A stretch of 33,548 nt of DNA from the NCBI RefSeq assembly GCF_003334815.1, contig NZ_QOWO01000040.1; one strand, 5' to 3'. This document shows, in pieces, positions 7,250-9,798 of the stretch. Every line of letters starts with the position of its first letter. The first letter of the stretch is position 1. This stretch comes from Escherichia coli (GTDB lineage Bacteria > Pseudomonadota > Gammaproteobacteria > Enterobacterales > Enterobacteriaceae). The notes beneath the pieces are model-generated. The model was given only the letters and a program-made list of their open reading frames with translations. It was not told the DNA's origin and did not search any database. The position numbers and the translations under genes are program-made.

Positions 7250-7792
7250 ATGAACTCTTTTTTTGAACAATATCACCCTGTCTTTGAAGTTGTCTGCCGT
7301 ATCCTGGGGAACGGCTGGCGCGTGAACAAACTTGATGATTGTTCGTCTCGTATAAAACTGACGTCACCGCAGTTTAAAAATTACTCTGTGCATATTCGGA
7401 TGGAAAAAGACCGGTTTTCTGTTGTGGGGAGTGTGGATAGTCGCTCCTGGCGTAGTCCGCATCATGTTTGCACGTTATCCAGAGAACGGAATCCCGTTGA
7501 TATTGCAGCCGATATCGAGCGAAAAATTCTGGTAAATGCTTCGCAGGAGGTGTTACAGGCGATTGAGTATGAGAAACACCAGGTGGAAAAAAAGGACGAA
7601 ATTCTGATCCTGAAAGGTATGTTATCGCAACTTGTCCAGCTTGAAAGCTGGTATGGGGCATTGACAGGCTTTAAAGCTGAAAACGGATTGAACGGTAAAG
7701 TCACCGAACAGGGCGACAGTTATGATTTACAGATTCGGGGCTTGAGTATAGATCAACTTGTTAAAATTACAGGGTATTTGAAACAGTTATGA
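7250..7792 (+). CDS. Hypothetical protein (180 aa)
   Basis: ORF track; RBS aaggg upstream; overlaps next gene by 4 nt. Confidence 0.55.
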   Translation: MNSFFEQYHPVFEVVCRILGNGWRVNKLDDCSSRIKLTSPQFKNYSVHIRMEKDRFSVVGSVDSRSWRSPHHVCTLSRERNPVDIAADIERKILVNASQEVLQAIEYEKHQVEKKDEILILKGMLSQLVQLESWYGALTGFKAENGLNGKVTEQGDSYDLQIRGLSIDQLVKITGYLKQL

Positions 7793-8040
7793 GAAAAAAT
7801 AAAGGTGATGTGACTTATTTTCTTGAAAAAGAAGGTGACAATTACAGGCTTACAAAAAGGATAAAAGCCAGAACAAATGTTAAAATCGGGAACAAAACTA
7901 CGAAAATTACATTGTATGATGCCGTACTGAATGAGAATGAATTACAACATATTGATTTTACGTGTGCCGGATTAAGGGAAGACGATGAGACGCCAGTTAA
8001 GAATTTAATTAAGGAGTTTATGTTAAATGAAACCCGATAA
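7789..8040 (+). CDS. Hypothetical protein (83 aa)
   Basis: ORF track; translational coupling (ATGA overlap). Confidence 0.5.
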   Translation: MRKNKGDVTYFLEKEGDNYRLTKRIKARTNVKIGNKTTKITLYDAVLNENELQHIDFTCAGLREDDETPVKNLIKEFMLNETR

Positions 8041-8254
8041 TACACCTGAAAATGTAAAAAAATTACGTTTAAAAGCAGGATTAACACAAAAGCAATGCAG
8101 TCATATTTATGGCGTTGGGCTAAGAACCTGGCAGAAAAAAGAGGAAGTTAATACTCAAAACAGTCAAAGTCTGTCACTGGTTGAGTTTGAGTTTCTTTTG
8201 TTACTTGCAGGAGAACATCCTGAATACGTGCTCTGCAAAAGGGAGTCAAAATAA
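8027..8254 (+). CDS. Small HTH (XRE-like) DNA-binding protein
   Basis: LRLKAGLTQKQCSHIYGVGLRTWQKKE resembles a helix-turn-helix. Confidence 0.5.
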   Translation: MKPDNTPENVKKLRLKAGLTQKQCSHIYGVGLRTWQKKEEVNTQNSQSLSLVEFEFLLLLAGEHPEYVLCKRESK

Positions 8255-8289
8255 AATGACCTGTGATGGTTTTATATTAGTACCTGGAG

Positions 8290-8708
8290 TTGCACCCGTA
8301 GCTCGCTGACGCTCACACGCGCAGTACAGCGCCCCGTCCTGTTGCGACGCACCAGGACGGCGTAAACTCGCTGGCGCTCGCGCTAACTGCGGCATTCTGC
8401 GGCGCAAATCAGCATAATCATGGCCTGCTGGTCAGTTGGGCTTTGCAGGGTGAAGGGATGGCCTGTGCACCCTGGTATGTTCGTCAGCGGCTGCGCCGCG
8501 CTTCGGGGCGATGTGGCTCCTGTGCTGCCCTGATATTTTCGTTCGCCCCTTCCATCCGCTTACGCGGATTAAAAAACGTGATAACAATCACTTATCGAGT
8601 AAAAAAACGGGAGAAAACTTGCAAATACGGCTTAAAAGTCGTATTATTATTTCATCGAAAGGGGAATGGCCCCTCTCACAATAGCCCAGCAGGGCAGGAG
8701 ATTTAAAA
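8290..8708 (+). repeat. About 420-bp direct repeat, copy 2, fused to the start codon of the 90-aa gene
   Basis: Identical to 6210-6629 apart from A-run length. Confidence 0.9.
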
Positions 8709-8981
8709 ATGAGTGCATTTGCTTTCAGAACCACCTTTAAACCGACTGGCGACCAGCAAAAAGACGCTATTACCCATATCGAAGTTATGCAGGAACGAGC
8801 AGTAAAAGCCTTTGTTTCCTGGATGAGCAGCCAGGAGCGCACAGACTTTTTAACCACTTTGCAGGAAATCACAACAGAACTTGATTCACTGATTTATGCG
8901 GTAGAGTCCCACACCCCTGTTTTTAGAAAGAAAGCTGGTGAACTGGAAACACTTTTAGCTCATTACAAAACATTGCTGTAA
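8709..8981 (+). CDS. Hypothetical protein (90 aa) expressed from repeat copy 2
   Basis: ORF track; same RBS as the J-domain gene. Confidence 0.55.
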   Translation: MSAFAFRTTFKPTGDQQKDAITHIEVMQERAVKAFVSWMSSQERTDFLTTLQEITTELDSLIYAVESHTPVFRKKAGELETLLAHYKTLL

Positions 8982-8988
8982 GTCTTCA

Positions 8989-9025
8989 ACGGGGCATTTG
9001 CCCCGTTATACGGCTCTTTTTTTAT
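8989..9025 (+). terminator. Intrinsic terminator (aacggggc attt gccccgtt, then T-run)
   Basis: 8-bp stem followed by ctcttttttt. Confidence 0.6.
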
Positions 9026-9053
9026 CCAAATCTAAAACAGGTGGAGTTTAAAA

Positions 9054-9353
9054 ATGACTCGCTTACCTTTTATTGAATCAACCACGCAACAGATTTTTAT
9101 TTTTAATACTGTGACGCTTTGTACTATTGGGTTAACCCATATAGAGACTGGTAAAGAATATGTTGTAGTATTTACAGATAATAATAAAATTCGTGACTAT
9201 AAAACCGGAATTGTTCCTCAGTTTGGCAAACTTAAGCAGAGTGATGTTGATTTAGTCCTTTTCTACAGGGACGAATATGAAAAATATTTTGATTCGTTAA
9301 AAGATGGCGATGAATGCTTGAGTTTTAAAGATTTTATTGAGTGCCTTCGTTAA
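9054..9353 (+). CDS. Hypothetical protein (99 aa)
   Basis: ORF track; RBS ggtggag. Confidence 0.5.
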   Translation: MTRLPFIESTTQQIFIFNTVTLCTIGLTHIETGKEYVVVFTDNNKIRDYKTGIVPQFGKLKQSDVDLVLFYRDEYEKYFDSLKDGDECLSFKDFIECLR

Positions 9354-9360
9354 GCATTAT

Positions 9361-9390
9361 AAATGCAGGGGGGGGGAACCCTGCATTTTC
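9361..9390 (+). terminator. Intrinsic terminator (aaatgcaggg / ccctgcattt, 10-bp stem)
   Basis: Read directly. Confidence 0.6.
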
Positions 9391-9447
9391 TGGAAATTTC
9401 AATATTGATTCTGAAATTGTCTATTAACATCAATACAAGGGAAATTC

Positions 9448-9798
9448 ATGAAAACGTTAAAACAAGCCGCAATGCAGTTTGCATCTGATCTGCGTAATAA
9501 TCGCTGTTTTAAAGCTGCTTATAATGATGCTCTGTTAGAGCTTGATCGGGAAGATTTAAACGCCATTGTACAATGCACATTTCTTTTTGAGCCAAAACGA
9601 ACATTAGCCGAACTTGATAAATTAATTAAAAAGATAGAAGTAGAAGAAGATTATGAGTTTTGTGTATCCCTTGATAAAGGTAAAGGATTACACGAAGTCA
9701 GAACATTTAAAAGTGAGCGTGAGGCGTTGGATGCTTATCGCATTTTGACTCTTTACGGATACACAGTAACTATAGAAAAGAAGGAGGGTAATGACTGA
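9448..9798 (+). CDS. Hypothetical protein (116 aa)
   Basis: ORF track; RBS aaggga. Confidence 0.5.
   Translation: MKTLKQAAMQFASDLRNNRCFKAAYNDALLELDREDLNAIVQCTFLFEPKRTLAELDKLIKKIEVEEDYEFCVSLDKGKGLHEVRTFKSEREALDAYRILTLYGYTVTIEKKEGND

Follow-up and report, generated by a model that had tools for sequence, protein, structure and literature searches.

CUP-family repeats precede the small genes between the origin and oriT of an IncX4 plasmid of Escherichia coli

The window, that is the whole 33,548-nt stretch of DNA analysed, is a complete IncX4 resistance plasmid of Escherichia coli, and the small genes between its replication origin and its relaxase genes are organised by two 420-nt repeats that were absent from an earlier sequence-only reading. 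The two repeats are identical, end at start codons and are homologous to the CUP ('conserved upstream') repeats of the IncN plasmid R46, which argues that the block is made up of two CUP-type operons, CUP-A and CUP-B. Direct observation established the anatomy of the block, its CUP homology, how it is oriented with respect to oriT, and that operator and HTH protein co-vary. We estimate at about 0.6 the probability that a CUP-type regulon of the leading region carries the block as its cargo.

Anatomy and position of the block

The six small co-directional genes claimed for positions 7250-9798 were all recovered as + strand ORFs at their exact coordinates. These are ORF180 (7250-7792, 180 aa), a conserved gene whose product combines an alpha-beta5-alpha module, a long helix and a beta4-alpha module; ORF83 (7789-8040, 83 aa), which codes for a basic beta4-alpha protein and is the conserved partner gene immediately upstream of the HTH gene; ORF75 (8027-8254, 75 aa), coding for an Xre/MqsA-type HTH protein homologous to EcaR; ORF90 (8709-8981, 90 aa), a variable cargo gene for a helical protein; ORF99 (9054-9353, 99 aa), common to IncX4 and IncI2; and ORF116 (9448-9798, 116 aa), of an orphan family found in IncX-type plasmids only. 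Public assemblies of the same plasmid annotate all six as genes, and since full-length homologues with 40-70% identity occur in other plasmids they are considered real genes. The block extends further than the six genes described earlier; that description had omitted, besides the 420-nt repeats, two further + strand genes. One codes for a J-domain protein (6630-7145, 171 aa) and is the first gene of the CUP-A operon, and the other is ORF45 (9874-10011, 45 aa), likewise called as a gene in public assemblies; of the small genes in the block it is the best conserved, its product being 64-89% identical in amino-acid sequence to those of four other plasmid types. The hicA/hicB toxin-antitoxin pair (10103-10695, + strand) follows behind its own consensus promoter, TTGACA-17-TATAAT, at 10046-10074. 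The order J-domain gene, ORF180, ORF83 and HTH gene, upstream of a CUP repeat, a toxin-antitoxin module, oriT and the relaxase gene, is kept in 8 further plasmids from 7 genera.

Translational coupling, proposed earlier for several of the genes, was seen for the first three, in which ORF180 and ORF83 overlap by ATGA (7789-7792) and ORF83 and ORF75 by 14 nt (8027-8040), and not for the others. The intrinsic terminators said to separate the genes were not recovered, as a consensus scan of 7250-9798 for canonical terminators returned only the promoter-spacer hairpin at 8624-8645. A stable hairpin is present in each of the gaps after ORF90, ORF99 and ORF116 (z -3.1 to -4.6), with a short U-run directly 3' of it only in the gap after ORF99. 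What separates ORF75 from ORF90, a gap of 455 nt, is one copy of the 420-nt repeat and not a terminator. Searches of Rfam at gathering thresholds found no family in the block.

The placement of the block between the origin and an oriT-like site was borne out by iterons at 5478-5609 and by an oriT core at 10958-11007 on the minus strand, in which a putative nick motif, TATCCTG/C (10958-10965, the slash marking the nick), is preceded by the inverted repeat GACAATC...GATTGTC. In the related plasmids L001, L014, L020 and L021 the taxA homologue is preceded, about 90 nt upstream, by the motif ATGCAGGATAG and, next to it, an inverted repeat whose sequence varies; nick motif and inverted repeat are conserved in five plasmids in all. 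The minus-strand motif places the genes in the part predicted to be transferred first, in agreement with the leading-region-like position suggested previously, and the block lies, as judged from sequence, within the leading region of the IncX4 plasmid. With the nick predicted on the minus strand, the genes of the block would have the transferred strand as template, while taxA (ddp1) and the MOBP relaxase gene taxC (11058-12794, + strand) would enter the recipient last.

Repeats, promoters and the candidate repressor

The CUP-A repeat (6210-6629, + strand) adjoins the ATG of the J-domain gene at 6630 and the CUP-B repeat (8290-8709, + strand) ends at the ATG of ORF90 at 8709; the two are direct repeats with 100% identity over 420 nt. 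In CUP-A a GC-rich core (about 6210-6480, 63% GC) and a hairpin (6474-6489) are followed by a sigma-70 promoter, a 5' UTR with two hairpins and a Shine-Dalgarno sequence. A profile built from 10 IncX4, IncI2 and IncX-like copies and searched with nhmmer matched all CUP repeats of R46, three at E 5e-21 to 4e-20 and two at 3e-9 and 2e-8. Alignment of 22 modules, including those of R46, showed that the -35, the -10, a 'CATCG' motif, both UTR hairpins and the Shine-Dalgarno sequence are in register and that the promoter lies about 100 nt upstream of the ATG in all 22. The UTR hairpin beside the Shine-Dalgarno sequence carries compensatory changes (GCCC/GGGC, GCCGC/GCGGC and GCCCG/CGGGC). Many modules are devoid of the core and consist of promoter and UTR alone. 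The CUP-A operon comprises the J-domain gene, ORF180, ORF83 and ORF75, while the CUP-B operon comprises ORF90, ORF99, ORF116 and possibly ORF45.

As described in two reports (PMC6289460; PMC5027574, both citing Delver and Belogurov 1997), CUP elements are ArdK-controlled promoter repeats of the IncN leading region, and CUP-mediated recombination is described in the second (PMC5027574). The literature searched mentions CUP for IncN and IncN2 only. By sequence comparison the IncX4 cassettes appear to be relatives of these IncN elements, which drive anti-restriction genes. In both systems the homologous repeats are about 0.4 kb long, end at the start codon of the operon's first gene, sit within the leading region in multiple copies per plasmid, and have cargo that is reshuffled at the repeat boundary. 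The systems differ in their control, which is by ArdK/ArdR in IncN, whereas the candidate repressor here is an Xre-type HTH protein encoded within the first operon; tblastn (E up to 10) found no homologue of ArdK or ArdR in the window. Comparison of the block proteins with the R46 leading-region proteins, among them those of ardA, ardB and ccg, by blastp and tblastn gave nothing significant. The R46 CUP spacer has no palindrome whereas the IncX4 spacer has one, and the IncN relaxase is of the MOBF type while that of the IncX4 plasmid is MOBP (TaxC).

The GC-rich core could be a priming site (ssi) for complementary-strand synthesis, in which case a primer laid at the core would be extended through promoter and operon, and these would be expressible first because they become double-stranded first. 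The geometry fits, as on the template strand promoter and genes have the core on their 3' side. This core is structured, its identity between IncX4 and IncI2 (91-94%) is far above that of the flanking proteins (40-60%), and a coding role is ruled out because copies differ by one-nucleotide indels. A core fragment also recurs in inverted orientation beside oriT in seven plasmids: in the window it lies between hicB and oriT (10704-10821, + strand; nhmmer E 5e-10, profile positions 129-268), and it occupies the matching position in L001, L007, L012, L013 and L014 and, more weakly, in L021 (E 6e-4). However, gene conversion or recent exchange could also yield the high core identity, the core could equally be a protein-binding site on duplex DNA, and a priming function is conjectural, with no match in Rfam; we regard it as unlikely, if worth weighing.

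The predicted promoters of the two CUP-type operons, TTGCAA-17-TATTAT at 6539-6567 in CUP-A and at 8619-8647 in CUP-B (both + strand), carry the same operator-like palindrome in the spacer, AATACGGC-N6-GTCGTATT in CUP-A, with 7/8 paired positions. Each plasmid has one palindrome, common to all its promoter modules, and six different palindromes were found across the plasmids. Palindromes were scored for each sequence against shuffles, the MAFFT columns putting those of different plasmids one column off, and 8 of the 11 spacer sequences tested scored above at least 99% of the shuffles. The recognition-helix segment of the HTH protein is identical where the operator class is identical and different otherwise, and L013, the sole plasmid without the HTH gene, has no spacer palindrome. 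Since the plasmid-specific palindrome co-varies with its recognition helix, ORF75 is probably the autorepressor of the CUP promoters.

The claim that the block codes for one HTH protein was upheld by the Pfam matches of ORF75 to MqsA_antitoxin (E 5e-5) and Xre-like-HTH (E 1e-4). Over its full length ORF75 shares 61% identity with EcaR of IncI2 mcr-1 plasmids (E 4e-34), which resembles it further in having an overlapping upstream partner gene (41% identical to ORF83) and in being followed by a CUP-family repeat. EcaR was published as a protein that activates the chromosomal wec operon. It was footprinted in the wecD-wecE region of E. coli K-12, activates PwecE and, jointly with mcr-1, increases colistin MIC and virulence (PMC12612032), while ORF75 is proposed here as a CUP repressor. 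The same publication does not discuss the position of ecaR as last gene of a CUP operon or the palindrome in the plasmid's own promoters. The IncI2 CUP operator is absent from wecD-wecE of E. coli K-12, and its best match, with 6/20 mismatches, is located elsewhere, a result that speaks neither for nor against binding of the host promoter.

These effects of EcaR also bear on the reading that the genes have ordinary maintenance or host-modulation functions, with ORF83 and ORF75 forming a toxin-antitoxin pair, for example, or ORF75 being a dedicated regulator of surface polysaccharide in the host, as reported for EcaR. ORF75 matches MqsA and Xre-antitoxin HTH models, a small protein followed by an overlapping HTH gene recalls the order of mqsRA and higBA, and hicAB adjoins the block. 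A toxin-antitoxin pair of ORF83 and ORF75 was rejected on the fold of ORF83, in which a RelE/MqsR/HigB-type toxin fold was not found, and on the HTH-less K. electrica plasmid, co-occurrence with the HTH gene not being obligatory. To maintenance or host modulation in general we assign a low probability.

The cargo proteins and the comparison with F

The J-domain gene is identified by the Pfam DnaJ entry on record, by NCBIfam J-domain matches and by phrog_15863, and is syntenic with ORF180 in all related plasmids. The five ORFs other than ORF75 had been called unrecognisable, and indeed ORF180, ORF83, ORF90, ORF99 and ORF116 gave no informative match in NCBIfam, PHROGs, PADLOC, Pfam (searched with single sequences and with families) or PDB sequences; the only PHROGs match among them was that of the C-terminal 40 aa of ORF99 to phrog_2061. 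ORF99 and ORF116 are classed as orphans; among 1.84 billion representatives searched exhaustively with HMMER, ORF116 had only 13 matches. That the block contains no recognisable anti-restriction, SOS-inhibition or ssDNA-binding gene was confirmed by family-model searches: no relevant match to ArdA, ArdB-KlcA or SSB was obtained in NCBIfam, PHROGs or PADLOC, none was present in the Pfam records, and the RefSeq annotation of the closest plasmid includes neither these nor any other known anti-defence gene.

Weak indications point to a secretion-chaperone/YbjN fold for ORF180, a fold which PsiB shares, and within the chaperone/YbjN/PsiB fold class ORF180 may serve as an adaptor that binds proteins. 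A reading of ORF180 as a PsiB homologue was rejected, as the remote-homology comparison with this SOS inhibitor, in which the ORF180 family was aligned with F PsiB by hhalign, returned a probability of 0.2%. ORF180 has no sequence or profile similarity to PsiB, carries an additional long helix and a second beta4-alpha module, and scores higher with other members of the fold class than with PsiB. ORF83 is weakly suggested to be a PUR/Whirly-like beta4-alpha protein and may bind single-stranded nucleic acid.

ORF90 is absent from the common IncX4 backbone, i.e. from most IncX4 plasmids, and shares 48% identity (E 2e-30) with the gene immediately behind Frpo1 in about 1700 IncF plasmids. Frpo1 and Frpo2 of F are, like the repeats described here, paired long direct repeats that stand just before operons of the leading region whose reading direction is toward oriT. 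The IncX4 repeats could be conceived as ssDNA promoters of the Frpo type or of a new class, in which a large stem-loop of the transferred strand rebuilds -35 and -10 and transcription of the genes precedes complementary-strand synthesis. F has the same arrangement of long direct repeats, which end at the first gene of its leading-region operons (PMC9849209), IncI1 has recently yielded ssDNA promoter classes dissimilar to Frpo (PMC12672017), ORF90 homologues stand under Frpo1, and the minus strand of the repeat folds better than shuffles (z -2.4 to -3.0). However, the plus strand folds equally well (z -3.1), the coding strand carries a conserved linear sigma-70 promoter, here with an operator-like palindrome, and the many modules without core retain promoter and UTR. 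The F leading region (18 kb, coordinates 50-68 kb) showed no similarity to the repeat by blastn at word size 7 or by nhmmer. The minus strand has three weak -35/-10 pairs overall against 1.8 expected, and its fold is multibranched. A rebuilt promoter was rejected on the absence of any -35/-10 pair scoring at least 8/12 in the transferred-strand core and on the similar folding of both strands, and we hold ssDNA promoters to be very unlikely.

Proposed course of expression and significance

As cargo of a CUP-type regulon, the block would be transferred from a minus-strand nick near 10965 toward lower coordinates, so that hicAB would be the first to enter the recipient, followed by ORF45, ORF116, ORF99, ORF90, CUP-B, the HTH gene, ORF83, ORF180, the J-domain gene and CUP-A. 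Each CUP unit would provide its operon with a sigma-70 promoter, a 5' UTR that folds, and a Shine-Dalgarno sequence joined to the start codon of the first gene, and in both promoters the palindrome that separates -35 from -10 would most likely be bound by an ORF75 dimer. We infer that these promoters are active, that ORF75 represses them and that expression is early: once double-stranded in a recipient free of repressor they would fire and then be shut off, the outcome being zygotic induction with negative feedback, by the same logic as ArdK at the IncN CUPs and Aca repressors at anti-CRISPR operons. In IncF, too, a gene of the ORF90 family is the first behind an early promoter (Frpo1). The cargo proteins would act in plasmid establishment.

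In acr-aca operons, small genes of unknown function follow a strong promoter whose -35/-10 is overlapped by an inverted repeat, and a small HTH gene comes last and is coupled. The block is alike in architecture, an analogy of logic only that implies neither anti-CRISPR homology nor anti-CRISPR activity.

A wider proposal, which we advance tentatively and consider possible though doubtful, is that IncX4, IncI2 and related IncX-type plasmids carry a hitherto unrecognised CUP branch, in which an Aca-like Xre repressor of the EcaR family gives an entry burst of wholly new establishment or anti-defence proteins, among them the PsiB-fold ORF180 with its J-domain co-chaperone and the PUR/Whirly-like ORF83. 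If this is true, the reported influence of EcaR on ECA synthesis in the host would be a secondary activity of a protein that is first of all an autorepressor in the leading region. The findings suggest a primary role for EcaR other than the published one.

IncX4 and IncI2 plasmids, which together with related IncX-type plasmids are the main vehicles of mcr-1, spread colistin resistance worldwide, and they are without recognisable anti-restriction, SOS-inhibition or SSB genes. Their genes predicted to be transferred first lie behind CUP-family repeats with a plasmid-specific operator-like palindrome and a cognate HTH protein, and a list of 'hypothetical proteins' would become a defined regulon testable by standard assays. 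Such a regulon would connect leading-region systems that have been studied separately, the CUP of IncN, the Frpo of IncF (through the ORF90 family) and EcaR of IncI2, with ORF180, ORF83, ORF90, ORF99, ORF116, ORF45 and the J-domain protein as candidates for new establishment or anti-defence functions.

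Two repeats of the CUP family

Two repeat copies on the + strand, CUP-A (6210-6629) and CUP-B (8290-8709), are 100% identical across 420 nt. Homologous units were found in an IncI2 plasmid (three units, core identity 91-94%) and in IncX6, Klebsiella electrica, Citrobacter and Pantoea plasmids (74-80% identity). A profile built from ten copies was searched against R46, an IncN plasmid with known 'conserved upstream' repeats (CUPs), and matched every CUP repeat of R46: those upstream of ccgAI, ccgD and ardA with E values of 5e-21, 6e-21 and 4e-20, respectively, that upstream of ardB at 3e-9 and the inverted copy near repA at 2e-8. 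By homology, the window repeats can be assigned to the CUP family with high confidence. In passages of PMC6289460 and PMC5027574 that cite Delver and Belogurov 1997, CUP is presented as a promoter-bearing element of the IncN leading-region regulon controlled by the repressor ArdK, and also as a recombination substrate; no mention of CUP outside IncN and IncN2 was found in the literature searched.

Compared by blastn with the common IncX4 backbone, the window copies gave 95-97% identity for each pairing, whether same-position or cross, and both carry one common operator mismatch, ACGGC for ACGAC. Together with their complete identity within the window, this suggests that the two copies underwent gene conversion recently.

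Read along the coding strand, the unit starts at its 5' end with a GC-rich, structured core of ~270 nt (63% GC vs 41% for the plasmid), which is non-coding since copies differ by 1-nt indels. The core is followed by a hairpin whose arms co-vary (ATCCGCG/CGCGGAT, ATGCCCG/CGGGCAT, TTCCCG/CGGGAA), an AT-rich stretch, a sigma-70 promoter at a fixed ~100 nt before the ATG, the conserved motif CATCGRRAGG, a GGGG/CCCC hairpin and a second hairpin that abuts the SD; AGGAG and then the ATG form the 3' end. The SD-abutting hairpin shows compensatory changes (GCCC/GGGC, GCCGC/GCGGC, GCCCG/CGGGC), and one G-T pair is workable in the mRNA sense only. The promoter-plus-UTR portion is also found alone, before other leading-region genes of related plasmids. 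Part of the core, at profile positions ~129-268, recurs inverted between the toxin-antitoxin module and oriT, here at 10704-10821 (E 5e-10, profile search) and at the matching position in L001, L007, L012, L013, L014 and L021, three of which are other plasmid types. That the structured core serves as a priming site appears unlikely, and such a role would be compatible with the repressor-controlled CUP promoters that we favour.

Position and content of the leading region

The region showed 98.5% identity to hundreds of 31-34 kb IncX4 plasmids (megablast) with a MOBP relaxase and MPF_T, many of which carry mcr-1. On the + strand, the 22-bp iterons of the origin (5478-5609) are followed by CUP-A, a J-domain gene (6630-7145), ORF180 (7250-7792), ORF83 (7789-8040), ORF75 (8027-8254), CUP-B, ORF90 (8709-8981), ORF99 (9054-9353), ORF116 (9448-9798) and ORF45 (9874-10011), the ORFs being named by length in aa. 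Next come hicA/hicB (10103-10695), an intergenic region of ~360 nt, taxA (11058-11561) and the relaxase gene taxC (11565-12794). A perfect consensus promoter, TTGACA-17-TATAAT, lies upstream of hicAB at 10046-10074 and is immediately preceded by a bidirectional terminator (10018-10038). In the IncI2 plasmid L003, a CUP-core fragment (8664-8755) lies upstream of a shortened hicB (8667-9047) with 91% identity to that of IncX4, which indicates that leading-region pieces have been exchanged between IncI2 and IncX4. Elsewhere in the window, positions 207-299 (-) match the AgrB antisense RNA of Rfam (55.6 bits, E 6e-7) and the closest annotated plasmid carries dqlB, a DinQ-like type I toxin gene; the locus is probably a dinQ/agrB-like type I toxin-antitoxin.

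On the nicked strand of MOBP systems, an inverted repeat lies 5' of YATCCTG|Y. The motif TATCCTGC occurs at 10958-10965 of the minus strand, with 93 nt separating it from the downstream taxA, and alone is not significant, with 5 occurrences in the window vs 3.4 expected. In the common IncX4 backbone, as in plasmids from Citrobacter, Yersinia and Providencia, ATGCAGGATAG is kept at ~90 nt upstream of the taxA homologue and has after it an inverted repeat whose sequence varies; 10958-10965 is a putative nick site. Were nicking to occur there, transfer of the minus strand would proceed 5' to 3' in the direction of lower coordinates, the block would lie in the leading region and the transferred strand would be the template for all its genes. 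The leading-region placement proposed by the sequence-only reading thus holds on the strength of this conserved nick-type motif, and we regard it as very probable. Genes of the F leading region likewise use the transferred strand as template (PMC9849209, PMC11541004). The oriT core is single-copy in the window (10953-11044), unlike the common IncX4 backbone, where it lies in a 91-bp tandem duplication with two copies of ATGCAGGATAG and the inverted repeat (L001 5380-5562).

All six small ORFs from ORF180 to ORF116 lie at the positions given in the sequence-only reading and are genuine genes with homologues in other plasmids, and the HTH protein is the sole member recognised by standard libraries, as the sequence-only reading had it. 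ORF180 homologues form 85 clusters of constant length at 51-93% identity, exclusively in Enterobacterales plasmids; those of ORF83, ORF75, ORF99 and ORF45 are present in IncI2, IncX6 and other plasmids. The translational coupling proposed for several genes is borne out by overlaps for the first three and not for the remaining ones, and the genes are not separated by canonical intrinsic terminators, contrary to what had been described. A stable hairpin occupies every gap 3' of ORF90, ORF99, ORF116 and ORF45 (z -3.0 to -4.6). The gap between the J-domain gene and ORF180 (7143-7249) folds as RNA at -42 kcal/mol (z -5.8) and holds two strong hairpins, one on a 7-bp GC stem and the other on a stem of 13 bp, neither of which has a U-tract.

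The spacer palindrome and ORF75

The -35/-10 spacer carries a palindrome that is identical across the promoter modules within a plasmid and different between plasmids: AATACGAC-N6-GTCGTATT in IncX4, TAGGTCAG-TT-CTGACCTA in IncI2, TAGGTCAT-AA-ATGACCTA in IncX6, TACCGCA...TGCGGTA in the Citrobacter, Edwardsiella and Providencia plasmids, ACCTGCA-AA-TGCAGGT in Pantoea and TACTGAC-AATA-GTCAGTA in Yersinia. Eight of 11 spacer sequences were better than at least 99% of shuffles; those below were R46, which is ArdK-regulated, the K. electrica plasmid and the window (one mismatch, both copies). Only the K. electrica plasmid lacks a homologue of ORF75, an Xre/MqsA-type HTH protein. This plasmid (region 696-4029) can be seen as a natural 'repressor-less' variant: it has homologues of the J-domain gene, ORF180 and ORF83 and four modules of the CUP or promoter kind, but neither an HTH gene nor a spacer palindrome.

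Alignment of nine ORF75 homologues revealed that the recognition-helix segment tracks the operator class: two GGTCA-type plasmids have R[TS]WRRKEEP, three CCGCA-type plasmids have identical LSNWQRKES-ITGRVVPIT and plasmids of other operator types have other sequences. Such a match is the expected look of an autorepressor and its operator but falls short of proof, because plasmids sharing an operator may simply be closer relatives. On balance, ORF75 is predicted to be an autorepressor acting at the spacer palindrome. It shares 61% identity with the IncI2 protein EcaR, which was shown to bind and activate a promoter inside the host wec operon (PMC12612032); a copy of the IncI2 operator was not found in K-12 wecD-wecE. 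Maintenance or host-modulation functions for the genes of the block seem improbable to us.

Cargo and expression on entry

ORF90 has about 1700 homologues and is 48% identical to the gene directly behind a 92%-identical copy of the F ssDNA promoter Frpo1 in IncF plasmids; this relative occupies the position that ygeA has in F, without being homologous to F ygeA itself. In F, expression of the genes downstream of Frpo1 begins within minutes of entry, and these genes are important for transfer (PMC9849209). The common IncX4 backbone does not contain window 8712-9111, and there CUP-B runs straight into a homologue of ORF99 whose N-terminus differs; ORF90 is, from this comparison, variable cargo. 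ORF99 is common to IncX4 and IncI2 and matches, through its C-terminal motif, an uncharacterised phage family. ORF116 is an orphan (13 matches among 1.84 billion representatives) with a 45%-identical relative and a C-terminal domain that also occurs separately. An 86-aa Citrobacter plasmid protein (L014 3573-3833) combines the ORF99 motif with the ORF116 domain, which points to domain shuffling among these proteins. ORF45, omitted from the sequence-only reading, is the best-conserved small gene of the block (64-89% aa identity in IncX6, Citrobacter, K. electrica and Pantoea plasmids), and no family match was found for it. The J-domain/ORF180/ORF83 module, with or without the HTH gene, is syntenic in plasmids with TaxC-type or IncI2-type (LPD7) relaxases.

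The reading best supported, to which we give a probability of about 60%, is that two CUP operons sit in the leading region, each with a linear sigma-70 promoter that would become active once the transferred strand is duplex and would be repressed by the operon-encoded HTH protein, so that on entry into a naive recipient the genes would be expressed in a burst. An ssDNA promoter is the least probable role for the repeats, which showed no similarity to the F leading region with its Frpo1, Frpo2 and F counterparts of newer ssDNA promoter classes (PMC12672017). A function of the proteins in establishment or anti-defence is a tentative proposal made from context: in IncN, ardA and ardB are driven by CUPs, members of the ORF90 family lie downstream of Frpo1, and two weak fold resemblances were predicted.

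The element family and the repressor-controlled leading-region logic are those already known from the IncN CUP regulon. The system described here differs in its host plasmids (IncX4, IncI2 and IncX-like), in relaxase type, in its candidate regulator, which is not ArdK but an Xre HTH protein whose predicted operator lies in the promoter spacer, and in a completely different cargo. The system would gain in interest were one of its proteins to turn out a novel anti-defence or SOS-control factor, or were EcaR to be primarily the leading-region repressor.
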